A stretch of 64,000 nucleotides of DNA from an uncultured Acidobacteriota bacterium (GCA_963770895.1 CAVYRF010000002.1:5728001-5792000), one strand, 5' to 3'; shown: positions 49,230 through 61,765, counted from the stretch's first letter. Notes: generated by a model from the letters alone, not told the origin. A program made the numbers and translations.

Positions 49230-51155
49230 TCAAACGGCGGCGGGCGCCGCCGCCCGCCGCGGCCTGCTCGCTGGATCTATAACGGGTGGAGACTTGCCGG
49301 TGAGCAGGACCGGGATGAGGTCACCGGGCAGACTCTGCATCTCAATGGCATTGCGACCCGCTAAAAACGCAGCGGGGATCTGGAGGCCGGCACCGAGGGC
49401 GGTATAAAAGCCCACCGAAAAGTTGATCGCGGTGCGGTCACTGATTGAACTTTTCATCCCGACGACGTAGGGGACGCGCTCGGCGATCGCCATCGCCTGA
49501 GCCTCCGAGTGACAGGAGTTGAGCACAACACAGCGCACCGCATCCGCGACCAGGTCAAAAAGGTGGACGAGGGCTGTCGTCGACACGAGCTGTGAGTCGC
49601 CCTGGTCGTTCTCGAGGACCAAACCGCTGGCACCCGTTCCGTGTCCGCAAAAGTGGACAATCTGTGGCCTGAGCTCCAGGATTGCCCGCTGCAAATCGAG
49701 AGGGCGCAGCGCGACGCGCTGCTCGAGGCTGAAAAGGTCCCGATACCTGGCGCGTCGGAAGCTGTCATCGATTTCCCGCATCTCTGCGTTCAGGCGCAGG
49801 CGCGTCTGATCGGACGGATCGGCCACCAGCAAGAGGATCTTGGCGACTCCGGAAACATCGCCAGACAAGGAGATCTGCTTGGCGATCGGTGTCCATGGCT
49901 GTGGCATCGCCACCTTCGCGTCGGACCTTTCCAGCTGGGCGCCGCTCGGCCCGGTGGGCAGCTTGGGAAGGTCGCTCGCGAACAGGTCTCTTGGCGTCAC
50001 AGGCAAGTCTGGTTCATCGCCTGACCTGCCGCCCTGGGGGAGCGCACCGGCCACCGCGGCCGTGGCTGTCACGACATCAGCGCCTGGATTGGCGAGCAGC
50101 TCCACAGCGATGGGTCGCAACGGAGCGCTGGCCGAGGGTGTCGCATACAACAGCGGCGCCTCTGTTTCAGTGCTGCCCGTTGCCAACTCCAAGGCCTTGC
50201 GAGCCGCAGCGACGCTCTGGCCGACCGTGGCACCGCCAACCAGCGAGGCATAGAGCTGCCGCTGCCAGGCGGCGCCGCCACCACCGGTCAGCCGGCGCCG
50301 CAGAGTGACCACCGACTCCAGGCCGCCACGGATAAGCGCCCGCGCGGTCAGGGCAAACGGGTTTACCTCGGAGCTTGTTTCGCCTGGTTCAAGCACTGCC
50401 AGCCGCAGCTGGTGATGGCCGGCGAGGCGACCAGCCATGAAGTCCGCGGTGACCATGCGAGGGTCTCCGCTTTCGCCTTCGACCAGCAGGCTGCCGATGC
50501 CTGAGCGTGCGTCGGAATGACCGCAACCTACGAAATGAAGGACCTGGAACGATTTCTGAGCGAGAGCCTGGGCAAGGTCAGGCATCCGGGCCGCCGGCAG
50601 GCGGGTGATCGAAAGCGTACCCGCGGCACGGAATTCCTGGAGCGCCGCCTGCAAGCCGTACCACGCGCGGTCGACCTCAACCCTGCGGTCCGGGAGACTG
50701 GGTAGGACTGCCAGGATCTCCAACGGACAGCCGAGGGCCTGCATAGAGCGGGGCTCCGTGGCGATGCTGCGAACGACGTCGATCCCAGCGAGGGGCGGGC
50801 CTTCGCTCAGCGCCTCCCATGGGATGTTCTCCAGCTCCGCCGCCGCTTCCAGGTCGACCCACAGACGCATGCACTTCCCGGCGGAGCTGGCCGCGGTCCT
50901 GGCGGTTTCAAGCCTGGCCAGGGTTTCACCACGAAAAACGGTCGAGAAAAGCAGCCCGGCGCCGGCCAGGGTCGCTTCTGGCCGGCCGCCGTCGGAGACC
51001 TTCGGCAGAAGGTCCAGGAGGTCCGCGGCAGAGAGACACGCGATGAGCGCGCCGCCGACGTCGCGCACCTGATATTGGCCGGGAGCGCTGCGGAAGCGCA
51101 ATGTCAGCTCTCCGGCCGTCTGTTGCACGCCGACGCTCAACCCTGTTGCGTCCAT
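49230..51155 (-). CDS. Tandem CHAT (caspase-like) domain protein: degenerate N-terminal CHAT plus intact C-terminal CHAT
   Basis: IPWEAL...VLHFVGCG...LAVLEPG (dyad lost) and KILLLVADP...IVHFCGHG...VVLNSC (dyad present). Confidence 0.82.
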   Translation of the reverse strand: MDATGLSVGVQQTAGELTLRFRSAPGQYQVRDVGGALIACLSAADLLDLLPKVSDGGRPEATLAGAGLLFSTVFRGETLARLETARTAASSAGKCMRLWVDLEAAAELENIPWEALSEGPPLAGIDVVRSIATEPRSMQALGCPLEILAVLPSLPDRRVEVDRAWYGLQAALQEFRAAGTLSITRLPAARMPDLAQALAQKSFQVLHFVGCGHSDARSGIGSLLVEGESGDPRMVTADFMAGRLAGHHQLRLAVLEPGETSSEVNPFALTARALIRGGLESVVTLRRRLTGGGGAAWQRQLYASLVGGATVGQSVAAARKALELATGSTETEAPLLYATPSASAPLRPIAVELLANPGADVVTATAAVAGALPQGGRSGDEPDLPVTPRDLFASDLPKLPTGPSGAQLERSDAKVAMPQPWTPIAKQISLSGDVSGVAKILLLVADPSDQTRLRLNAEMREIDDSFRRARYRDLFSLEQRVALRPLDLQRAILELRPQIVHFCGHGTGASGLVLENDQGDSQLVSTTALVHLFDLVADAVRCVVLNSCHSEAQAMAIAERVPYVVGMKSSISDRTAINFSVGFYTALGAGLQIPAAFLAGRNAIEMQSLPGDLIPVLLTGKSPPVIDPASRPRRAAAPAAV

Positions 51156-51167
51156 GGTGGCGAAGGC

Positions 51168-52121
51168 TCAGGAAGGCGCCACGGCCGACGCGTCGACCAG
51201 ATGGCCGCAGCAGGTGCAAAAGCGCTCGTCACCGACGGGCAAACGGCATCCGCAGCGCGGGCAGAAGCGCGCCGCCTCGTCACCCTTCGACCTGACGGTG
51301 CGAGCGGTCAGAATGCGATCGTACTGGCCGCTGCTGGTCCAGCGATCGAATTCAGCGGCCCGCATCACGGTCCAGGGGTGGCTCTCTCCCATAATACTGA
51401 GAATCTTCGCGACGCGGTCCAGTGGATTGGCGTCGAAGCCCTTGAACGCCCGTGCCTGGGCGATGAAGTCTTCGGCGTTGAAGCTGGAGCGATACTTATG
51501 CGGCAGTCCAGCCATTTTGATCATGGCGCTGATTGCCGCATCGCGGTTCTGGCAAGCCAGCAGTCCCGCGCGATCGGCCGTCAGCTCGGACATCCGCTTC
51601 CAATTGAGCAATGCCACTTCGAGCGCGGTCGACAGCCACGGTACTCCCGGCAGGACGCCAAGGGCATCTCCCAGGAAGGGCAGCACGGACCCCATCTGGT
51701 GGTAGAGGACGTGTCCGCTCTTGATGTGCCCGAGCTCGTGGCCGATCACGAAGAACAGCTCTTCTTCGCTGAGGCAATCGATGCAGGCGGCGTTGAGCAC
51801 CAGAATTGGCTTCTCGACACCAGCTGTAAACGCATTGATGCCGCGCCCTTCCTGCAGGTAGATGTCGGGCAAGGTCGCCAGGTCGAGAATCCCTGCAGCT
51901 TCCGCCACCAGGGTGTGGATGTCCGGCAGATTGTCGGCAGTTACCTGCAAATTGCTGCCGGTGTACTGAATCTTGAGGAAGCGCTCAAAGCCATATTGAT
52001 TAAAGGCACGCACCACCACCTCCAACCCTGGAGTGCCGCGCAGGCTTTCGAGCGCATGTCCGTCGAAAGGATGTTCATAGGCTTGTGCCTGTAGCCCTGC
52101 CAAAATCGCCCTTGCCATCAT
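51168..52121 (-). CDS. M48 family metallopeptidase with C-terminal zinc ribbon
   Basis: YEHPFD, NAFTAG, HELGH, ELTADRAG, SHPWTVMR; CPRC...CTCC. Confidence 0.9.
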   Translation of the reverse strand: MMARAILAGLQAQAYEHPFDGHALESLRGTPGLEVVVRAFNQYGFERFLKIQYTGSNLQVTADNLPDIHTLVAEAAGILDLATLPDIYLQEGRGINAFTAGVEKPILVLNAACIDCLSEEELFFVIGHELGHIKSGHVLYHQMGSVLPFLGDALGVLPGVPWLSTALEVALLNWKRMSELTADRAGLLACQNRDAAISAMIKMAGLPHKYRSSFNAEDFIAQARAFKGFDANPLDRVAKILSIMGESHPWTVMRAAEFDRWTSSGQYDRILTARTVRSKGDEAARFCPRCGCRLPVGDERFCTCCGHLVDASAVAPS

Positions 52122-52187
52122 TGTCCTCCAGCTAAGGCGCTGTCAATAAACAAATTTGACACTTGAGAGATTTTGATGTAGAACATT

Positions 52188-53414
52188 GTGGAGATGTCTG
52201 ATCTCCGCGCGCTGCAACAGAAGGTGGATTTGCTTTGGCCTCACCTGGACGAGCGGGCACGGCGTTTGTTCGCAGCGAGCGAGGCTCGCCAGCTTGGCCA
52301 CGGTGGCGTCTCGACAGTCAGTCGGGCCTGTGGCTTGTCGCGGGTCACGATTACGAAAGGCCTGAAGGAACTTGAAGGTTCCCCTCTTGCTGCGGGCCGA
52401 GTTCGGCGCGAGGGTGGCGGACGACCGGCGCTTGAGGTGCTCGATCCCGACCTGCCGAAGAGGTTGGAGGCTCTCGTTGAGCCCTTGACGAGCGGCGACC
52501 CCGAATCGCCTCTGCGCTGGACGAGCAAGAGCACGCGCGTCCTGGCCGCAGAGTTGGCAGCCGAGCACCATCCGGTCAGCCATGAGAAGGTGGCTCAGTT
52601 GCTGCGGCAGATGGACTACAGCCTGCAGGGCAACCGGAAGGCCGATGAGGGAAGCGACCATCCGGACCGCGATGCTCAGTTCCAATACATCAACGCACAG
52701 GTGAGCAAGGCGCTGGCCGCGAAGCGACCTGTCATATCGGTCGACACGAAGAAGAAGGAGATCCTCGGCAACTATTTAAACAAGGGCCAGCAGTGGCGAA
52801 AAGCGAAGTCTCCGCAACGAGTGAATGTCCACGACTTTCCCAGTCCAACGGTGCCGCGAGCCTACCCGTATGGAATCTACGACCTTGGCCGAAACACCGG
52901 GTTTGTGAACGTCGGCACAGATCATGACACCGGCGCCTTCGCGGTCGCGTCGATTCGGGGATGGTGGCGCGCCGAGGGGCGGCGGCTATATCCGAAGGCC
53001 CAAACTCTCTTGATTACCGCGGACGGTGGCGGCAGCAATGGCTATCGTCTTCGTCAGTGGAAAATGGAACTCCAGGCGCTGGCGGACGGGGCAGCGCTCT
53101 CCATCATGGTCTGTCACTTCCCTCCGGGGACCAGCAAGTGGAACAAGGTGGAGCACCGACTTTTCTCCTTCATCTCGTCGAACTGGCGCGGAGAGCCGCT
53201 TCGCGACTACGAGACCATTGTCCGCCTGATCGCCAAGACCACCACTGCCAAGGGCCTCAAGGTGAAGTGCCGGCTAGACCGTCGCTCGTACCCTGTCGGG
53301 CGAAAGGTATCCGACCAGGAGATCGCTACCCTCAACCTTAAGCCTCACTCATTCCACGGCGAATGGAACTATCTCATCCGATCTCACGATGGGGGATGTC
53401 CCACTTTCCGTTGA
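52188..53414 (+). CDS. ISAzo13-family (Rhodopirellula-type) DDE transposase
   Basis: GDPESPLRWTSKS, HPDRDAQF, ISVDTKKKE, ADGGGSNG, PPGTSKWNKVEHRLF; last codons altered by the IS256 insertion. Confidence 0.93.
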   Translation: MEMSDLRALQQKVDLLWPHLDERARRLFAASEARQLGHGGVSTVSRACGLSRVTITKGLKELEGSPLAAGRVRREGGGRPALEVLDPDLPKRLEALVEPLTSGDPESPLRWTSKSTRVLAAELAAEHHPVSHEKVAQLLRQMDYSLQGNRKADEGSDHPDRDAQFQYINAQVSKALAAKRPVISVDTKKKEILGNYLNKGQQWRKAKSPQRVNVHDFPSPTVPRAYPYGIYDLGRNTGFVNVGTDHDTGAFAVASIRGWWRAEGRRLYPKAQTLLITADGGGSNGYRLRQWKMELQALADGAALSIMVCHFPPGTSKWNKVEHRLFSFISSNWRGEPLRDYETIVRLIAKTTTAKGLKVKCRLDRRSYPVGRKVSDQEIATLNLKPHSFHGEWNYLIRSHDGGCPTFR

Positions 53415-54818
53415 AAGTCGACGGCGAAGTTGGCGGTAGTTTCACGCAGTGAGCGTCTCCTGGTCAAGCTTTTCTGGGTAAGAAGGGGCAGACCGAGCGA
53501 GGGCGATGCTGAGAGCCGGCAGGTCGCGGTAGCCCTTGATGCGACGGAAGCGCTTCTCGGCTTCGAGGATCCCGGTGACCGCCCAGCGCAAGACCATCGT
53601 CCCTCCTCGCCAGCGCTTGACACGGCGAGCCAGGTGCTTCAGAGCACTGTTGAGATTCTCGATTGGATTGGTCGAGCGCAAACTGCGAGTGAGCGTCGCC
53701 GACATGCGCAGGCCGATGATTGTTAAGGTTTCATCGAGACCTTCCCGCAACGACGACGCTGCGCCTGGATGCGCCTCTTCCAGTTGCTCTGCCAAGCCCA
53801 CGAGGCGCTTCCGGGCTTGCTCGACAGAGCCAGCGGCCCAAGCCTTCCGGATCACCGTTCGCACCCACGCGTGCTTACTATCAGGTAAATGATCGATCAC
53901 GTTGCGCATCTTGTGGATCTGGCAGCGTTGGATCAATGCCCAGCCCGCAAAAGTCTTTCTAATCGCGGCACGCACGCCCTTGCCGCCGTCCACAACGAAC
54001 AGGCGCATCCGCTCTACCAGCAGGCCGCGCTCGATCAAGTTGCGCAGCAACGCCCGCCCTGCCTGCTCGCTCTCGCTGCTGCCTTCCACCACCCCCAGCA
54101 CTCGCTTCGACCCATCCGCCTCGATGCCCATCGCCAACAGCAGCACATGGTCGCCAAGCACCGTGCCGTCGATCATGAGCACCGGGAAGTCCCTGCCTTC
54201 GAGGGACTCGGACAGCCGCTGGGTGATCTGCTGGCGGGTCCGCGCGACGAAGCGCCGGGACACGCTCGAACGGCTGACCGAGCACGAGTTCCGGCTCTCG
54301 GGCAGGGCCTCCAGGCTCCGGGCATACTTGCGCGTCGATACGCCCACGATCATCTGCTCGAGAGCTCGCTCGTCGAGAGGATCTTCCTGTCGCATCGCGA
54401 CCCAACTCGGCAGCGCCAACTCCTCGCCCCCGACGGTGCGCACCCGCGGCCGGCCCAGCTGCACCTTGCGGCCGCCGAGGACCACGCGACCCTGCTCATG
54501 TCCGTAGCGATACGCCGTGCGCTGCGCTCCCTGCCGGCTGCCGGCAGGACCCACCAGCGCCTCGCGGTCCTCCTCCAGCATCGCCTCGAACACCGCGAGC
54601 CCCGTCGCCATCACCAGCTCCCGTAGCGCCTCTCCGGCTCGCACCAGCACGCCCCCCACGCCTACTCGCCGACAGGCTCCCTCGTGCCCAGCAGTTGCCT
54701 CTCTCCCTCTCGCCGTGGCACTCTTCTTCATGACGGTGACCCTCCTTTAGTTGGCACCCCCATGCTCTATGGGGGCGAGGATCGCCGTCAACTTTCAACG
54801 GATTCTGGGACAAGGCCC
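53391..54818 (-). mobile_element. IS256-family insertion sequence
   Basis: About 37-bp imperfect TIRs GGGGGATGTCCCACTTTCCGTTGAAAGTCGACGGCGA and (reverse complement) GGGCCTTGTCCCAGAATCCGTTGAAAGTTGACGGCGA; CACGAT(G) duplicated at 53385 and 54819. Confidence 0.85.
53442..54731 (-). CDS. IS256-family (Mutator-type) transposase
   Basis: GVSTRKY, LMIDG, VVDGGKG, QRCQIHKMRN, STNPIENLN. Confidence 0.93.
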   Translation of the reverse strand: MKKSATARGREATAGHEGACRRVGVGGVLVRAGEALRELVMATGLAVFEAMLEEDREALVGPAGSRQGAQRTAYRYGHEQGRVVLGGRKVQLGRPRVRTVGGEELALPSWVAMRQEDPLDERALEQMIVGVSTRKYARSLEALPESRNSCSVSRSSVSRRFVARTRQQITQRLSESLEGRDFPVLMIDGTVLGDHVLLLAMGIEADGSKRVLGVVEGSSESEQAGRALLRNLIERGLLVERMRLFVVDGGKGVRAAIRKTFAGWALIQRCQIHKMRNVIDHLPDSKHAWVRTVIRKAWAAGSVEQARKRLVGLAEQLEEAHPGAASSLREGLDETLTIIGLRMSATLTRSLRSTNPIENLNSALKHLARRVKRWRGGTMVLRWAVTGILEAEKRFRRIKGYRDLPALSIALARSAPSYPEKLDQETLTA

Positions 54819-54850
54819 CACGATGTGTAAATGTTATTTGTTGACGACTC

Positions 54851-55177
54851 CTAAGCCCACAATGGAGCTACGCCCTTGGCGACACGAAAGGCGTTGACGA
54901 CACTCCACAACCAGACTGCCAGATAGGAAACACCAGCCGTCACCGGTACTGCCCCCATGGCCGGAACGGTGAGGATCATCATCAACAAGCCCTTCTTGAA
55001 ATCGTTGTTGTAAAACTGGCCCAGACCCGGAACCACTACAGAGAAAATGACCGCGGCAATGGGACTCTTGCTTTTTCCGGTAATCAGACCTGGCATCTTT
55101 GCCTGCAGCTGGAAACCGCAACCACGGCAGAAAACGGCACGGTCGTCATTGTGTGTCCCGCACTTTGTACAGACCAT
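54851..55177 (-). CDS. Small zinc-ribbon membrane protein (TM2/NINE-like helices)
   Basis: MVCTKCG...FCRGCG, then KSPIAAVIFSVVVPGLGQFYN and further TM helices; ATG 55177 after GGAGG. Confidence 0.75.
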   Translation of the reverse strand: MVCTKCGTHNDDRAVFCRGCGFQLQAKMPGLITGKSKSPIAAVIFSVVVPGLGQFYNNDFKKGLLMMILTVPAMGAVPVTAGVSYLAVWLWSVVNAFRVAKGVAPLWA

Positions 55178-55363
55178 CGAGCACCTCCCATGTAGACGTT
55201 CAGGTTCAACTTGGTCTGACACCCTCCACGTCGCTTTGGGTGAGTCCAACCCGGCAGGAGCCGCGTTCGACTTCCTGGCAATTTGCGATATGCGCATTGG
55301 ACTTGCTCAGCCGATCACTCCCATACTTGCGCAATCCGTGGCGAACGAAAGAGGAGGCGGCGA

Positions 55364-56506
55364 GTGCCCAGGAACCTGGTGGTGTGCTGTGACGGGACGG
55401 GTAACGAGTTCGGCGACGCCAATTCGAACGCCGAAACGATCTATAGCTTGCTGGTCCTGGACGACGGCCGGCAGGTGGCCTACTACCATCCGGGCGTCGG
55501 CACGATGGGGGCGCCCAACGCGCTGCTCAAGACCACCAAGTGGTTCACCCGCGTGCTCGGGCTGGGCTTCGGCTACGGCATCACCGCCGACATCGAAGAC
55601 GCCTACGAATTTTTGATGGACACCTTCGAGCCGGAGGACCGCGTGTTCGTGTTCGGCTTCAGCCGCGGCGCCTACACCGCCCGCGCGCTGTGCTCGATGC
55701 TGCGAATGTATGGCCTGATCCGCCGCGGCGACCGCGCGCTGGTGCGCTATGCCTCGCGCATGCTGCGCCACGGCGGCGCCGACCGGTTCCGCCTGGCGGC
55801 GCAGTTCAAGGCAACCTTTTCGCGCCCTTGTAAACCTTATTTTGTCGGCGTCTGGGACACCGTTAAGTCGATCGGTTGGATCACCAACCCGGTGGACCTG
55901 CCCTATACCGGCACCAACAAGGATATTCAGTTCGCCCGCCACGCGGTGTCGATCGACGAGCGGCGCTGCTTTTATCGCACCAACCTGTGGCAGGCGGTGG
56001 CGGACCCCCGGCCCGGCCAGCCGCCGCCCCTCAAACAGGTCTGGTTCGCCGGCGTCCATTCCGACGTCGGCGGCTCCTATCCGGCGGCCGAAAACGGCCT
56101 TTCCAAGATCGCCCTGCGCTGGATGCTGGCCGAGGCCGCCGACGCCGGCCTGATCCTCGATCCGCAAAAAGCGTCGCGCGCCCTGCACACCGACGCCCAC
56201 GACCAGACGTCCCCGGAGTTCATGATCCACCGCTCCCTCAAGCGTTGGTGGTGGTCGCTCGAGTACTTGCCCAAGCGCTCCAGGAAGGAGCAGCCGCAAC
56301 CCGACGGCAGCTCCACCTGGATCACCCGCTGGGCGCTGCCGCGCGCCAAGCCGCGCACCATCGCTCCCGGCTCCCTGGTCCACCAGAGCGTCATGGACCG
56401 CATGCAACAGGTGCCGTCCTACCGGCCGATCAACCTGCCGCCGCCGCCGCAGTACACGGTCGTGGACGACCTGCCTGCGCCGTTTCCGAAGGTGCCCACG
56501 CCCTGA
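55364..56506 (+). CDS. DUF2235 alpha/beta hydrolase (Tle1-like phospholipase domain)
   Basis: RNLVVCCDGTGN, YYHPGVGT, FGFSRGAYTAR, GVWDTV, HAVSIDERR, WFAGVHSDVGG; GTG 55364 after GAGGAGG. Confidence 0.9.
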   Translation: MPRNLVVCCDGTGNEFGDANSNAETIYSLLVLDDGRQVAYYHPGVGTMGAPNALLKTTKWFTRVLGLGFGYGITADIEDAYEFLMDTFEPEDRVFVFGFSRGAYTARALCSMLRMYGLIRRGDRALVRYASRMLRHGGADRFRLAAQFKATFSRPCKPYFVGVWDTVKSIGWITNPVDLPYTGTNKDIQFARHAVSIDERRCFYRTNLWQAVADPRPGQPPPLKQVWFAGVHSDVGGSYPAAENGLSKIALRWMLAEAADAGLILDPQKASRALHTDAHDQTSPEFMIHRSLKRWWWSLEYLPKRSRKEQPQPDGSSTWITRWALPRAKPRTIAPGSLVHQSVMDRMQQVPSYRPINLPPPPQYTVVDDLPAPFPKVPTP

Positions 56507-56531: not shown

Positions 56532-57569
56532 CTAGGGCACGCACTCGCCGAGAACGGTGGTGAGCGTGACGGAGCACCCGAGCAACGTGGCGCCCCCGCA
56601 GGACACCGTCAGGTTCATGGGAGTGGCGCCTTGATAGATGCCGGTGATGGTGTTGTTGCCGCTGGCCAGGGTCGTGGGCGCATGGGACACGAGCACTCCG
56701 GGAGATGCGGTCACGGTTGGAGTGCAGCCCGAAAGCGACCCCGACAGGTTCACCGTGGCGACAAAGGCATGGAAATCGGGCCCCGCTGTGCCCGGCGGCG
56801 GCCCGAGGCAGCATCCCGAGGTAACCGTTCCTGTCAGCGTGCATCCCAGAGGTTGTATATGTGTGGCGCAAGGACAACCCCTGGGGATCACCCCTCCCGG
56901 GGCGCTGATGGTACCGGCGACGTCCAGCCCGGTGGGGGTGGGCCCGATCGCGGTGGCTCTGGCGGTGGCGTTGGTATTGGTCGGGTTGATCGCCGAGCCC
57001 TCGTTGTGAACCTTGATGATCACGCAGTTCTCGCCCGCCACGAACGGGCCGCTTAAGACTTTCGTGTCGGGAGCGTTCGCCTCGAATGAATTAAGGGTCC
57101 CCGTGTACGCCGGCGTCGTGCTTGGATTCTCGGCCATCGCGAGGCTGTCGTTCAGGTAGACGAATTCCTGGTTGTCGGCCTGCATCTGCAGACTGACCGT
57201 CGCGCCGGCCGGTTTGTCTAGGCAAAAGCACGACTGGTAGAAGTAGTCGCCGCCGGGCTGGGCAGCGTTGGCTGCTGTATTGCTGATCCACTGGCTGCCG
57301 CCAATCGGCGGATTCCAGCCGCTGATCTTAGACACCGTGAAGGTGGGCAGGGTTGCGACGACCGCAGGAGGAACCGCGATCAGACTCCACAAGGGATCCT
57401 GCGCTCCAATCGCCAGCAGGCCTCCGGTCGCATTGGTACCGGTGTTCAGGGACAAGCTGGCGGCATCCCTGCAAATGAGGGCTGTCTGACCCGACAGGGA
57501 CCATGGACACACCACGAGAAATAGCAACACGAAACCCATACGCTGGAGCTGCCGCGCCGCCAGGTGCAT
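56532..57569 (-). CDS. Secreted Cys-rich hypothetical protein with putative jelly-roll/lectin-like domain
   Basis: Signal peptide; SQWIS...ADN...YLN...GENCVIIKVHN...PTGL pattern; Cys-rich C-terminus. Confidence 0.6.
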   Translation of the reverse strand: MHLAARQLQRMGFVLLFLVVCPWSLSGQTALICRDAASLSLNTGTNATGGLLAIGAQDPLWSLIAVPPAVVATLPTFTVSKISGWNPPIGGSQWISNTAANAAQPGGDYFYQSCFCLDKPAGATVSLQMQADNQEFVYLNDSLAMAENPSTTPAYTGTLNSFEANAPDTKVLSGPFVAGENCVIIKVHNEGSAINPTNTNATARATAIGPTPTGLDVAGTISAPGGVIPRGCPCATHIQPLGCTLTGTVTSGCCLGPPPGTAGPDFHAFVATVNLSGSLSGCTPTVTASPGVLVSHAPTTLASGNNTITGIYQGATPMNLTVSCGGATLLGCSVTLTTVLGECVP

Positions 57570-57731
57570 ACTTGCTCCTTTTTTTGAGAAAGGTGATCAA
57601 ATTTCAGTATGAACCTGGCGACTGGCTCCCGCAAGCCTACTCGCTCATGGCAAAATACAGAATTGACATTCCGGGCTCGCGCTTCAAGACTCTAAAATGA
57701 AGCTGGCACCGGCACCCAAAGGAGACGCACG

Positions 57732-58337
57732 ATGGCTGAGCAACCAGGACCGTTTCTGAACCTGCCCTCGGAAGAGGAGCTGCGGCAGCGGGCGCACGCC
57801 GCCGGCGCAGCGCCGTCGCCCTACGACTTTGGCTTCGTCGGCGACATGTCGCGCCTGCTCGCGGCGCACCCGCGCATCGGTCCGGCGATGCAGCGCGCCT
57901 TTGCCGAGATCATGTTCGCGCCGGGCGCGCTCAGCCGCGCCGAGCGGGAGATGGTCGCGGCCGTCGCCTCGGCGGCCCAGGACTGCCAATACTGAACGGA
58001 GTCTCACGCAGAGTTTCTGCGTGTCGAAAACGGCGACCCCAGCCTGGTCGAGGCGATCAAGCGCCACCGGTGGCGCGACCTTCCCGGCCTCACGCCGCGC
58101 CAGCGCGCCCTCTGCACGGTGGCGGAAACCATGACCCTGCGCCCCCGGCAGATGACCGCCGCCGACTGGCAGCCGCTGCGCGACCTCGGCTTCTCCGACG
58201 AAGCGCTGCTCGAGTTGGGGCACCTGATCGCCATCTTCAACTACTTCCCGCGGATGGCCGACGGCTTCGGCCTGGTGGTGCACGAAAAGCTGCGCGAAGC
58301 GGCCGCCACCGGCGTCCCGCTACGTCGCCAGAGCTGA
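57732..58337 (+). CDS. AhpD/carboxymuconolactone decarboxylase-like peroxidase, putative selenoprotein (TGA at 57993-57995 read as Sec)
   Basis: ORFs 57732..57995 and 58119..58337 share a frame with only TGA between them; readthrough gives EREMVAAVASAAQDCQYUTESH...FSDEALLEL...FNYFPRMADGFG (201 aa). Confidence 0.8.
58005..58023 (+). promoter_or_regulatory. Candidate bacterial SECIS hairpin
   Basis: CACGCAGA-GTT-TCTGCGTG, a perfect 8-bp stem whose loop begins with GU 18 nt after the TGA. Confidence 0.65.
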
Positions 58338-58369
58338 GACCCGCGGCGGCAGGCTGCTACCATGACCTG

Positions 58370-61300
58370 ATGGATCTTGCCGCTTCGCTCTCCAGCCACG
58401 TGACGCGGGCAGTGCGCTATCGCGGCACGGCGTACTTTCATGCCGGCCGCGTGACCCTGCTCAAACGGGGCGCCGAGATGGTGACCGCGGCGGTCAGCGG
58501 CACCAAGCCGTACCACGTCGAGCTGACCCGCCGGGACCGGTCGCTGGCGGTGTCGTGCACCTGTCCGCACTTCGAGCGCGACCAGCAGGCGTGCAAACAC
58601 ATCTGGGCGACCCTCCTGGCCGCCAGCTCGCTGGGCCATCTGGTGCCGCCCTCGGGTGAGGCGCCGCGCTGGATCACGCCCGTCGCCACCGTCCCCACCT
58701 CCGGCAACGGCAGCGGCGATGCGCGCACTGCGGCCGCCGCGGCGGCGGCTCGCGACGGCTCGGCCCTGCCGCTCGCGGCGCGCGGCGGCGCGGCGGCATC
58801 CGCCCTGGCCGGCGCCGGCGGCGCCTTCGCTTCGCAGGCCTGGCGGCTGGCGGATCCCATGCCGCAGAGCCCGCCCGCGCCGCCGCCGCCGCCGACCTGG
58901 CGCAGCCACCTGGCGTCGCTGGACATCGCGGCGGTGCCGGCCGCCGGGCGCGGCAAGCGGATCGAAGAGGTGCAGTACGTGATCGACCGGGCGGCGTCGA
59001 GCCGCACCGGCGGCCTGGTCATCGAGCTGTTGGAGCGCGGCCGCCGGGCGAACGGCGAATGGGGCAAGGCGCGGTCGCTCAAGCTCGACCGCGGCGACAT
59101 CGCCTCGCGCGTGCCGCTCGAGGTCGACCGCCAGATCCTTGCCCTGCTGGGCGGCGCCCGGTCGCACCCGTCCTTCTATGCCGGCTGGATGACCTACGCG
59201 GATGCGCTGCCGTCCCGCGCCGAAGCGCCCGAAATGCTGGGCCCGCTGCTGGCGCCGCTGCTGGCCGCGACCGGCCGCGCCAGCCTGCGCCCCGCTCCGG
59301 AAGCCCTGCCAGGACCGCCGCTCACCTGGGACGCGGGCGCCCCCTGGCAGCTGTGGCTGGCGGTGCGGCGCGGCCAGGACGGCAGCCAGTACCAGGTCGA
59401 GGGCAGCTGGCGGCGCGGCGACGAGCGCCTGGCGCTCGACCAGGTGGCCCTGACCCTGCGCTCCGGCATCCTGGTCACCGCCGACCGCATGGCGCGCCTG
59501 GACCACGGGGGGAGCTTTGCCTGGATCCCGCTGCTCAATCGCATCCACCGGCTGGAAGTGCCCGCCGCGGAGATCGAACAGCTGGCGGCACGGCTGCTTG
59601 CCGAGCACGACCTGCAGCGGCTCGATTTGCCCCCGGAGCTGCGCTGCGAAGAGGTGAGCGAAACGCCCACCCCGCGCCTGCTGCTGCACGCCCCCGGCTC
59701 CCCTGCCGAGCGCTGGCAGCGCGCCACGGCGATGCTGCGCTACAGCGCCGGCGACGTGGCGCCGGACGCCCCCGGCCAGCGCCTCTACCGGGCGGCGCCG
59801 GACCGCCGCCTGGTGCGGCGCGACCGCGAAGCCGAAGCGCGCGCCCAGCGCCGGCTGGCCGACGGCGGCTTCCAGCCTGCCGGCGACGGCGACCCCCACG
59901 GCACGCTGCGCATCGAGCGGCGGCGGGTCGCCGACGTCGCGCCGCAGCTGCTCGCCGAGGGGTGGCTGCTGGAGGCGGAGGGGCGGCCGCTGCGCGCGCC
60001 CACCCACCCGCAGCTGGCCGTCAGCTCGCACATCGACTGGTTCGAGCTGCGCGGCGGCGTCGACTTCGACGGCCAGATCGTGGCGCTGCCCGATCTGCTG
60101 CTGGCCCTGCGGCGCGGCGCCACCACCATCCGCCTGGGCGACGGCGCCACCGGCCTGCTGCCCGAAGAGTGGCTGCGGCGCGTCGCGCCGCTGGCCGAGC
60201 TCGGCCAGCCGAGCGGCGACCACCTGCGCTTTCAGCCGGCGCAGGCGGGCCTGCTCGACTCGCTGCTCGCGGCGGAACCGGCGGCCACCGCGGACCGCGG
60301 TTTTGCCGACGCCCGGCGGCGCCTGGCGGGTTTTGCCGGCATCGAGCCGGCGGCGCCGCCGCCGGGCTTTCACGGCGAGCTGCGCCCGTATCAGCGCGCC
60401 GGCCTGGGCTGGCTGCACTTTTTGCGCGAGTTCGGCTTCGGCGGTTGCCTGGCGGACGACATGGGCCTGGGCAAGACCGTGCAGGTCCTGGCGCTGCTCG
60501 CCAGCCGCCGCCGCCTGCGCAAACGCCAGGGCCTCGGCCCCTCGCTGGTGGTCGTGCCGCGCTCGCTGATCTTCAACTGGATCGCCGAGGCCGCCCGCTT
60601 CACCCCCGCCCTGCGCGTGCGCAACTACACCGGCACGCAGCGGCATCGCCACGACCAGCCGCTCGACGACTGCGACCTGGTGCTCACCACCTACGGCACG
60701 CTGCGCCGCGACGCCGGACGCCTGAGCGCGATCGAGTTCGACTACCTGATCCTGGACGAGGCGCAGGCGATCAAGAACCCCGCCAGCGAGTCCGCCAAGG
60801 CCGCCCGCCGGCTCAAGGGCAGGCATCGCCTGGCGCTCACCGGCACGCCGGTCGAAAACCACCTGGGCGACCTGTGGAGCCTGCTGGAGTTCCTCAACCC
60901 CGGCATCACCGGCGCCTCGGCGATCCTGCGCTCCGCCACCGGCATGCTGCGCGACCCCGACGAGACGACCCGCGCCCAGCTGGCGCGCGGCCTGCGCCCG
61001 TTCATCCTGCGCCGCACCAAGGAGCAGGTGGCGCCCGAGCTGCCGGCCAAGTTCGAGCAGACCATCGTCTGCGAGCTGACCGCCGGCCAGCGGCGGCTGT
61101 ACGACGAGCTGCGCCAGCACTTCCGCTCGACGCTCGCGCTGCGCGTCGACGAGCGCGGCCTGGGGCGGTCCAAGATGCTGGTCCTGGAAGCCCTGCTGCG
61201 GCTGCGCCAGGCCGCCTGCCATCCCGGCCTGATCGACCCGGCGCGCGGCGGCGAGCCCAGCGCCAAGCTCGACTTTTTGCTGCCGCAGCTGGCGGAGGTC

Positions 61301-61765
61301 CTGGCCTCGGGCCACAAGGCGCTGGTGTTTTCGCAGTTCACCAGCCTGCTGGCCATCCTGCGCCGCCACCTGGACGCGCAGGGCATCACCCACGCCTATC
61401 TCGACGGCCAGACCCGCGACCGCGCCGCGCGCGTCGAGCAGTTTCAGGGCGACCCCGCGTGCAAGCTCTTCCTGGTCAGCCTGAAGGCCGGCGGCCTGGG
61501 CCTCAACCTGACGGCCGCCGACTACGTGTACCTGCTCGATCCGTGGTGGAACCCGGCGGTCGAGGCGCAGGCCATCGACCGCGCCCACCGCATCGGCCAG
61601 ACCCGCCAGGTGTTCGCCTACCGCATCGTCGCCAAGGACACCGTGGAGGAGAAGATCCTGCTGTTGCAGCAGAGCAAGCGCCAGGTCGCCGACGCCATCA
61701 TCAGCGCCGACGACACCCTGCTGCGCCGGCTGAGCCGCGACGACCTGGATCTGCTGCTGTCCTGA
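58370..61765 (+). CDS. SWIM zinc finger + SNF2 family helicase
   Basis: CTC...CKH SWIM, LADDMGLGKT, LDEAQ, TGTPVEN, QAIDRAHRIGQ; ATG 58370. Confidence 0.92.
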   Translation: MDLAASLSSHVTRAVRYRGTAYFHAGRVTLLKRGAEMVTAAVSGTKPYHVELTRRDRSLAVSCTCPHFERDQQACKHIWATLLAASSLGHLVPPSGEAPRWITPVATVPTSGNGSGDARTAAAAAAARDGSALPLAARGGAAASALAGAGGAFASQAWRLADPMPQSPPAPPPPPTWRSHLASLDIAAVPAAGRGKRIEEVQYVIDRAASSRTGGLVIELLERGRRANGEWGKARSLKLDRGDIASRVPLEVDRQILALLGGARSHPSFYAGWMTYADALPSRAEAPEMLGPLLAPLLAATGRASLRPAPEALPGPPLTWDAGAPWQLWLAVRRGQDGSQYQVEGSWRRGDERLALDQVALTLRSGILVTADRMARLDHGGSFAWIPLLNRIHRLEVPAAEIEQLAARLLAEHDLQRLDLPPELRCEEVSETPTPRLLLHAPGSPAERWQRATAMLRYSAGDVAPDAPGQRLYRAAPDRRLVRRDREAEARAQRRLADGGFQPAGDGDPHGTLRIERRRVADVAPQLLAEGWLLEAEGRPLRAPTHPQLAVSSHIDWFELRGGVDFDGQIVALPDLLLALRRGATTIRLGDGATGLLPEEWLRRVAPLAELGQPSGDHLRFQPAQAGLLDSLLAAEPAATADRGFADARRRLAGFAGIEPAAPPPGFHGELRPYQRAGLGWLHFLREFGFGGCLADDMGLGKTVQVLALLASRRRLRKRQGLGPSLVVVPRSLIFNWIAEAARFTPALRVRNYTGTQRHRHDQPLDDCDLVLTTYGTLRRDAGRLSAIEFDYLILDEAQAIKNPASESAKAARRLKGRHRLALTGTPVENHLGDLWSLLEFLNPGITGASAILRSATGMLRDPDETTRAQLARGLRPFILRRTKEQVAPELPAKFEQTIVCELTAGQRRLYDELRQHFRSTLALRVDERGLGRSKMLVLEALLRLRQAACHPGLIDPARGGEPSAKLDFLLPQLAEVLASGHKALVFSQFTSLLAILRRHLDAQGITHAYLDGQTRDRAARVEQFQGDPACKLFLVSLKAGGLGLNLTAADYVYLLDPWWNPAVEAQAIDRAHRIGQTRQVFAYRIVAKDTVEEKILLLQQSKRQVADAIISADDTLLRRLSRDDLDLLLS

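Follow-up and report, generated by a model that had tools for sequence, protein, structure and literature searches.

A conserved cassette of zinc-ribbon membrane protein, M48 metallopeptidase and CHAT or TIR protein, interrupted by nested insertion sequences in an Acidobacteriota genome: a candidate protease-gated conflict module

In bacterial gasdermin-protease operons, a protease gene adjoins the gene of an effector, lethal or acting on membranes, that cleavage activates. TIR and caspase-like domains recur throughout innate immunity, in bacteria, plants and animals alike, and how they are held off and switched on is the central question for each new system. Type IV Thoeris is reported to pair a TIR protein with a caspase-like effector in immunity (bioRxiv 10.1101/2024.10.24.620036; PMC13243611), and Kaur et al. 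(eLife 2020, PMC7159879) place inactive caspase-like domains in effector positions of the vWA-MoxR ternary conflict systems. Here we describe a cassette of three genes on the minus strand of a 64,000-nucleotide stretch of DNA (the window) from an uncultured Acidobacteriota bacterium (GCA_963770895.1, CAVYRF010000002.1:5728001-5792000), in which a small zinc-ribbon membrane protein, an M48 metallopeptidase and a protein with two CHAT domains are encoded in that order and the first gene is split from the other two by nested insertion sequences (IS). An earlier annotation made without database searches (the sequence-only reading) had proposed these genes as an operon, and the positions that it gave for all three open reading frames (ORFs) were confirmed:

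54851-55177, minus strand: gene 1, zinc-ribbon membrane protein, 108 amino acids (aa)
51168-52121, minus strand: gene 2, M48 metallopeptidase with a C-terminal zinc ribbon, 317 aa
49230-51155, minus strand: gene 3, two-CHAT protein, 641 aa

The three genes form a real, conserved operon-like unit. All are full length by comparison with their orthologs, and the coordinates place the gene 2 stop 12 nt before the gene 3 start, the gap that had been claimed. Among 41 related genomes, including that of the window (G000), full-length M48 proteins of this kind occur only in G000 and its congener G007 (71% identity), the other 15 matches being short and lying in the HExxH region of longer proteins; the G007 contig carries the membrane gene, a 12-nt spacer, the M48 gene and a two-CHAT gene, with no IS. 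A set of homologous loci (L-numbers below) was seeded with M48, taking the best 80 of 439 relatives in a one-genome-per-species collection. A CHAT-like gene lies directly 3' of the M48 gene in 25 of these 80 (20 by phmmer and 5 more by profile), its start in several loci abutting the M48 stop or overlapping it (ATGA or GTGA), and a zinc-ribbon membrane gene lies directly 5' of M48 in 22 of the 25, the exceptions being L020, L092 and L093. The association also holds from the other side, in a set seeded with gene 3 for which a CHAT-TIR alignment was run against metagenome contigs and 79 loci were kept of 528 relatives. Wherever the N-terminal module of gene 3 (N-module) and upstream DNA were available, M48 is upstream (45/45 loci), and a membrane gene precedes M48 in all 32 loci that leave 300 bp or more for it; a further 7 N-module loci, whose contig starts within the gene or <200 bp before it, stand outside this count, and the TIR-only relatives without an N-module have M48 upstream in 0 of 27. 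Since the congener has an uninterrupted copy and many unrelated genomes show the same order, chance does not account for the arrangement, and the proposed operon stands.

In a quick maximum-likelihood tree of 81 M48 sequences, with support from the Shimodaira-Hasegawa-like approximate likelihood ratio test (SH-aLRT) only, all M48 proteins with a gene 3 partner fall into a single clade of 27 rows (SH-aLRT 95), which also takes in that of L089, where the contig stops at M48. This clade splits into a two-CHAT group of 5 rows (99) and a CHAT-TIR group of 22 rows (99), the M48 clades matching the type of effector ending, or warhead, and Acidobacteriota, Betaproteobacteria and Rokubacteria interleave inside it. 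Among 401 genomes of the phylum, a match above 40% identity was found in G000 only; the N-module profile gave 6 of 401, a figure obtained with 7 candidates scored per genome and not a prevalence. A full-length gene 1 relative also lies directly before M48 in L089 and 8 further loci, bringing the total to 31 of the 80, and in roughly a dozen loci, of Methanobacteria and others, the gene 1 position is taken by different zinc-ribbon proteins.

Gene 3 is made up of two folded domains joined by a linker:

50124-51125, minus strand: N-module, residues 11-344, a folded CHAT domain without a catalytic dyad
49851-50123, minus strand: linker, residues 345-435, Pro/Ala-rich and disordered (predicted local distance difference test score, pLDDT, <50), gappy and variable in alignments
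49296-49850, minus strand: C-terminal short CHAT domain, residues 436-620, with H505 (HFCGHG) and C548 (LNSCHS)

Pfam CHAT (PF12770) matches the protein in two stretches (73.1 bits against a cut-off of 24; the best at residues 439-596), the PADLOC models 'chat' and 'SAVED_CHAT' match the C-terminal domain, and an AlphaFold model with a mean pLDDT of 73.5 is folded at 11-344, disordered at 345-435 and folded at 436-620. The nearest solved folds in Foldseek are SAVED-CHAT (PDB 8tl0; E 1e-12), the anti-sigma factor DdvA, the Craspase TPR-CHAT protein Csx29 (7y84, 8d9h) and separase. Where the sequence-only reading spoke of a dual CHAT, two CHAT domains are indeed present, but they are not both live. 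The N-terminal one is dead, with C211 in place of His and G258 in place of Cys at the dyad positions. His and Cys survive together in only 6 of the 25 orthologous modules, and not once among the 5 two-CHAT proteins. The C-terminal one keeps H505 and C548, which we take to be the catalytic dyad from the general caspase/CHAT pattern, in HFCGHG and LNSCHS motifs that hardly vary among 14 two-CHAT relatives.

In its usual form the cassette carries a TIR domain, and the live CHAT ending is limited to the window's lineage. At the 25 M48-seeded loci the third protein has TIR_2 at its C-terminal end in 21 cases (E about 1e-18 to 2e-24), 12 of which also give a weak Pfam match to CHAT in the N-terminal part, and a second CHAT as the end domain is found only in L019-L022 and the window, in whose three proteins Pfam detects no TIR. 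The N-module is common to the TIR and two-CHAT forms. TIR itself is strongly conserved, with the Glu of its PWQ..E motif, presumably the catalytic residue as in TIR NADases, retained in 21/21. Over the same 19 loci, mean pairwise identity is 64.3% for TIR, 59.7% for M48, 47.9% for the membrane protein and 31.7% for the N-module, by which measure the N-module evolves about twice as fast as M48 or TIR. A search of 1.84 billion representatives with the N-module profile returned 28,470 proteins with E of at most 0.001, of which 2,197 reached 1e-30 or better. The top 76 matches comprise 31 proteins of about 300-550 aa that consist of N-module and TIR, several two-CHAT proteins and, for the remainder, ordinary CHAT proteins that also carry TPR, WD40 or AAA_5; in one relative of N-module-TIR type, Effector-associated domain 5 (EAD5) stands at the N-terminal end. 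A co-fold of M48 with the N-module, run without controls, scored 0.00 and is evidence neither way.

As a separate observation, G000 is rich in caspase-like proteins, with at least 12 further places that have CHAT matches to gene 3, including ORFs of 1442, 1527 and 2342 aa.

The M48 protein is matched by Pfam Peptidase_M48 (PF01435) at residues 66-261 (78.8 bits against a cut-off of 20.3). In 20 diverse homologs there is no variation in its zinc site HELGH (H128, E129, H132), in the third ligand E179 (within SELTADRA) or in the four cysteines of the C-terminal zinc ribbon (C287, C290, C302 and C305), and the protein also has a distinct conserved N-terminal region, YEHPxD. Because it has no window of transmembrane grade (19 residues, Kyte-Doolittle at least 1.6), the protein is taken as soluble (cytoplasmic) or else peripheral, and its catalytic residues are intact. 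NCBIfam HtpX models score it at 19-39 bits against cut-offs of 245-422; its predicted model (pLDDT 82) gave nothing in Foldseek at E 0.001 or better, with weak matches to HtpX, Ste24 and BlaR1, and its profile matched an HtpX fragment and one further sequence, weakly, among the sequences of solved structures. The family of M48 proteins with this zinc ribbon (M48-ZnR) is large: of 8000 proteins scored, 2819 reach an E of 1e-10 or better.

The gene 1 stop codon is at 54851-54853 and the ORF extends to 55297; the start is put at 55177, giving 108 aa, because the congener ortholog is equally long and GGGAGG (55184-55189) precedes it. The product is predicted to be a small integral membrane protein with a cytoplasmic zinc ribbon. 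An N-terminal CxxC...CxxC ribbon of the cytoplasmic type (Pfam Zn_Ribbon_1, E 1.1e-6, beside weak TM2/DUF5683 matches) is accompanied by a motif, PGLGQFYNNDFKKG (pattern PGxGQxYNG..KKG), by hydrophobic helices with hydropathy windows of at least 1.6 at residues 63-94, and by a conserved C-terminal Trp-containing tail, ...PLW(A), in the ortholog alignment. In the ESM Atlas the product falls among uncharacterised Zn_Ribbon_1/TM2-like clusters of bacteria and archaea. The resemblance between the zinc ribbons of genes 1 and 2 that had been pointed out is real in that both are of the CxxC...CxxC kind (the Zn_Ribbon_1 match in one, the four invariant M48 cysteines in the other).

Between genes 1 and 2 lies the insertion, listed here with its parts and the features that flank it:

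52137-54850: composite insertion, an ISAzo13-type outer and an IS256-type inner element
52137-53391 plus 54819-54850: outer ISAzo13-type element, transposase ORF at 52188-53414 on the plus strand, its 3' end displaced
53392-54818, minus strand: inner IS256-type element, transposase at 53442-54731 on the minus strand
52132-52136: target-site duplication, left copy, CTAAG on the plus strand, 10 nt upstream of the M48 start
54851-54855: target-site duplication, right copy, CTAAG on the plus strand, including the gene 1 stop codon
52125-52129: GGAGG, of ribosome-binding type, before M48

The split of the operon by IS that the sequence-only reading described is thus a nested pair of elements flanked by a 5-bp direct repeat. 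The outer element has the ISAzo13 family's transposase (Pfam DDE_Tnp_ISAZ013, E 2.5e-135), terminal inverted repeats (imperfect, forming the ends at 52137 and 54850) and 5-bp duplication, and further ISAzo13-type copies in the genome are only ~80% identical. The inner element has the Mutator-type transposase of the IS256 family (Pfam Transposase_mut, E 3.4e-44), inverted repeats of 31 nt (87%), a target duplication in the form of a 7-letter direct repeat (53385-53391 and 54819-54825) and multiple copies, 4 of them full and 100% identical in the genome. Its bounds were set by public soil-metagenome contigs, one of which (1426 nt) spans 53392-54817, and a contig of run X2 passes directly from 53384 to 54819, with 7 letters shared at the joint, representing the outer IS without the inner one. 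In run X1, a 427-nt contig covering 51718-52136 ends with 8 extra letters equal to 54856-54863; this reads like the IS-free junction and is held as a hint only, because 8 letters fall below the 31-letter bridging rule. Cutting out the insertion with one repeat copy removes 2719 bp, the identical excision to that proposed earlier, and restores the junction as proposed, with the gene 1 TAG followed by a 10-nt spacer containing GGAGG and then the M48 ATG ATG.

That the cassette ORFs are full length and the IS256-type copies identical suggests a recent insertion. An IS stretch of 2.7 kb now precedes genes 2 and 3, with 1.26 kb of it antisense to the pair, and gene 1 retains its own upstream region; the insertion has cut genes 2 and 3 off from gene 1 and from the native promoter, and may have a polar effect on them. 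A promoter scan returned 2 sites against 0.9 expected and is not informative. At the IS end (52117-52146, minus strand) there is a promoter-like site in which TTGACA faces M48 and a weak -10 overlaps the M48 start codon; outward transcription could arise there, and a translatable M48 message probably would not.

With middling confidence, we read the cassette as a horizontally mobile, protease-gated three-gene conflict module, immune or cell-death in nature, with a swappable warhead, of which the window holds an IS-disrupted copy. The reading is drawn from a conserved warhead that is swapped on a fast-evolving module, the fixed partners, the patchy spread across phyla, low guanine-cytosine (GC) content and tolerance of the IS. 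Further links to conflict systems lie in the EAD5-bearing relative, the Foldseek neighbours of gene 3 and the inactive caspase-like domains described in PMC7159879. As to the low GC that had been claimed for the cassette, values over 49.0-52.0 kb are 0.60-0.69 against 0.68-0.79 in the flanks, within a lower-GC tract of 0.57-0.70 at ~49 to 58.5 kb in a window of otherwise ~0.72-0.79; a scan found no tRNA in the window. Under the conflict reading, the dead CHAT-like module would sense a trigger or keep the warhead inactive, and M48, stationed at the membrane via the gene 1 product, would gate activation by proteolysis, its substrate being either the effector linker or the gene 1 product. The freed warhead would then degrade NAD+ (TIR) or proteins (CHAT), stopping the cell or the invader. 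We infer both the defence or cell-death role and every one of these activation steps.

Several observations weigh against the conflict reading. The flanks of the 25 loci (124 ORFs) hold mostly ordinary metabolic or repair genes, the exceptions being other TIR, caspase or CHAT genes at 3 loci, HipA at 1 and transposases at 3, and none of the 124 flanking ORFs matched a restriction-modification, CRISPR or Abi family. The cascade of signalling, defence or cell death envisaged by the sequence-only reading is upheld in part: the TIR/CHAT swap, the patchy cross-phylum spread and the fast N-module speak for conflict, and these flanks are for the most part not classic defence islands. Among viral contigs the M48 alignment gave 71 pattern matches, none of them a relative, and no PADLOC model is matched by M48 or the gene 1 product. 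M48-ZnR identity is 50-66% across phyla and the family reaches Methanobacteria, which is unusually conserved for a defence gene. Further, the 8 loci besides L089 that carry M48 with a gene 1 relative belong to Verrucomicrobiota, Planctomycetota, Calditrichota and Bacillota and have no CHAT or TIR gene. Since the M48 and membrane-protein pair occurs in further phyla without gene 3, it is older and wider than the trio, and a pair without an effector fits a more general role in membrane proteolysis.

Such a role could be cell-intrinsic, in regulated proteolysis or stress signalling, with the membrane protein and M48 as a switch like BlaR1 or HtpX and gene 3 as a signalling or developmental output, not a suicide effector. 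We regard this, the main rival, as possible, if on the doubtful side. It agrees with a pair that is widespread and conserved, including in archaea and in loci without CHAT or TIR, with neighbours that are mostly ordinary genes, with HtpX, Ste24 and BlaR1 as the fold and sequence relatives of the protease, and with an anti-sigma factor, DdvA, as one structural neighbour of the CHAT protein. It accounts poorly, however, for the rare and patchy distribution in genus and phylum and the cross-phylum mixture in the tree, a TIR/CHAT swap on a fast module, and loss through an IS while the ORFs stay undecayed, would be more usual for accessory conflict genes, and the flanks of the 25 loci show no conserved gene for a regulator or sigma factor. 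If the trio does act in conflict, M48 might instead be a safety device resembling an antitoxin, continually trimming or destroying a leaky effector or membrane protein, so that its loss or inhibition during infection would free the warhead. The co-occurrence data fit this arrangement equally, translational coupling of M48 and effector would suit a fixed stoichiometry, and the effector linker is long and exposed; nothing sets it apart from the activator model, and the IS provides no test of it because M48 and the effector stay together. We consider it improbable. That the three genes are mere neighbours, or the IS-free junction a coincidence, with no functional unit at all, is scarcely credible given an intact copy in the congener, association in both directions (25/80 and 22/25 from the M48 seed, 45/45 and 32/32 from the gene 3 seed), M48 clades that track warhead types, and overlapping stop and start codons.

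The conflict reading can be extended to a broader claim, which we put forward tentatively and think rather unlikely to hold in full, of an unrecognised immune or cell-death family in which M48, tethered via the zinc-ribbon membrane protein, gates a modular effector: a fast-diversifying pseudo-caspase sensor or decoy, joined by a cleavable, disordered tether to a TIR NADase or, in the lineage of the window, a live caspase-like protease. The family would be widespread in soil Acidobacteriota, Betaproteobacteria and Rokubacteria. The TIR/CHAT swap on one scaffold offers a ready-made comparison. Should the cassette be immune, a proteolytic gate of a new enzyme class would be added; should it not be, the M48 and membrane-protein pair of bacteria and methanogens is still without a known role.

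A number of loci depart from the common layout. L020 (4200-7713; Thermoanaerobaculaceae) has no membrane gene before M48, and two frames that overlap make up its broken two-CHAT gene, which looks like a decaying cassette, and in two metagenome loci (L167, 2557-3001; L168, 2199-2744) ~450-550 bp lie between M48 and the N-module, a gap that could hold one more small gene or reflect an extended N-terminus. Other genes of conflict type adjoin the cassette at three loci, encoding a TIR protein, a caspase C14 protein and a TPR-S/MAP3K_TRAF_bd protein at L024 (3281-7032), a TIR-CHAT-AAA_16 protein at L029 (8181-10922) and a CHAT+TPR-S protein at L031 (90-3080). In 3 of 4 cyanobacterial loci (L057, L067, L073) a class-3 lipase (Lipase_3) gene directly follows M48-ZnR, and the Lipase_3 protein may be a further warhead type for the M48 family. 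At the Methanobacteriaceae loci L040, L044, L034, L037, L039, L049, L077 and L082, M48-ZnR stands beside proteins with two to four zinc ribbons, accompanied in L040 and L044 by a DnaJ and HEAT-repeat protein. L040 is labelled Atribacter and may be mis-binned, its M48 being nearly identical to that of the Methanobacterium locus L044 (tree branches 0.004 and 0.015).

Around the cassette, the low-GC tract holds several other genes. Divergent from gene 1 and inside the tract is a type VI secretion system (T6SS) Tle1-like / DUF2235 alpha-beta hydrolase (55283-56506, plus strand; Pfam E 2.6e-70), with no match in PADLOC or NCBIfam. Two ORFs on the minus strand (56532-57569, 345 aa; 57684-58283, 199 aa) have no Pfam, NCBIfam or PADLOC match, and the 345-aa ORF has scores <0.9 only in the ESM Atlas. 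At the edge of the tract is a large SNF2 helicase with an N-terminal SWIM finger (58070-61765, plus strand), the helicase part of which gives strong PADLOC matches to DpdE and ZorD; as its NCBIfam scores (SCO1167 family, ZorD) are far below cut-offs, the protein is probably generic.

The sequence-only reading knew of no named system with this composition, and the searches made here agree. In the PADLOC v2 defence catalogue there are only domain-level CHAT and TIR matches, the composition of the cassette being absent, and a full-text literature search yielded nothing describing M48 in combination with CHAT, TIR, a zinc ribbon or anti-phage activity; a 'TIR' match in PMC11237479 is to CesT/Tir and not to the TIR domain. 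The main texts of three 2025 preprints on defence discovery are silent on M48, metalloproteases, metallopeptidases, CHAT and zinc ribbons (in the first, on zinc altogether), and their supplements could hold such operons. No description was found of M48 and a zinc-ribbon membrane protein as fixed partners, of a dead caspase-like domain as the variable module, or of a natural TIR/CHAT swap. A secreted toxin was dropped as a candidate, no secretion-related family match having been noticed, with signal peptides not predicted.

Compared with described systems, the cassette shares parts with several. Gene 2 has the HExxH...E core in common with HtpX, Ste24 and BlaR1, its best sequence and fold matches, but unlike them lacks transmembrane helices and a sensor domain and has a C-terminal zinc ribbon and the YEHPxD region; a BlaR1-type sensor was dropped for want of any transmembrane or sensor domain in M48. 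The logic is similar to that of the gasdermin operons, whereas Pfam finds no gasdermin domain in the cassette's three proteins, for which reason this type was also dropped, and the membrane protein is a 108-aa zinc-ribbon/TM2-like one. Unlike the type III CRISPR-associated CHAT proteases, gene 3 has no SAVED or TPR domain in Pfam, and its activation would come from a metalloprotease instead of a nucleotide signal or RNA-guided complex; Cas-family Pfam matches are absent from the ORFs scanned at 43.6-62 kb and from the 124 flanking ORFs, no search for CRISPR arrays having been made. With the vWA-MoxR systems of PMC7159879 the cassette shares a dead caspase-like module as a non-catalytic part, and an EAD5-bearing N-module-TIR relative exists; the main text of that paper does not mention M48, and no vWA, MoxR, VMAP or STAND component stands beside the cassette in the flanks of the 25 loci. 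Matches of related cassettes to the ThsB model of Thoeris are weak (E 3e-5 to 7e-4), and the flanks of the 25 loci show no conserved fourth gene as a candidate for a separate, ThsA-like effector that would sense a signal made by TIR. Type IV Thoeris is approached in that relatives of the cassette hold both TIR and caspase-like domains, although the version in the window is without TIR. The relatives differ from it in fusing the TIR and caspase-like parts in one protein, the latter mostly catalytically dead, and in having M48 and the zinc-ribbon membrane protein as obligatory partners.

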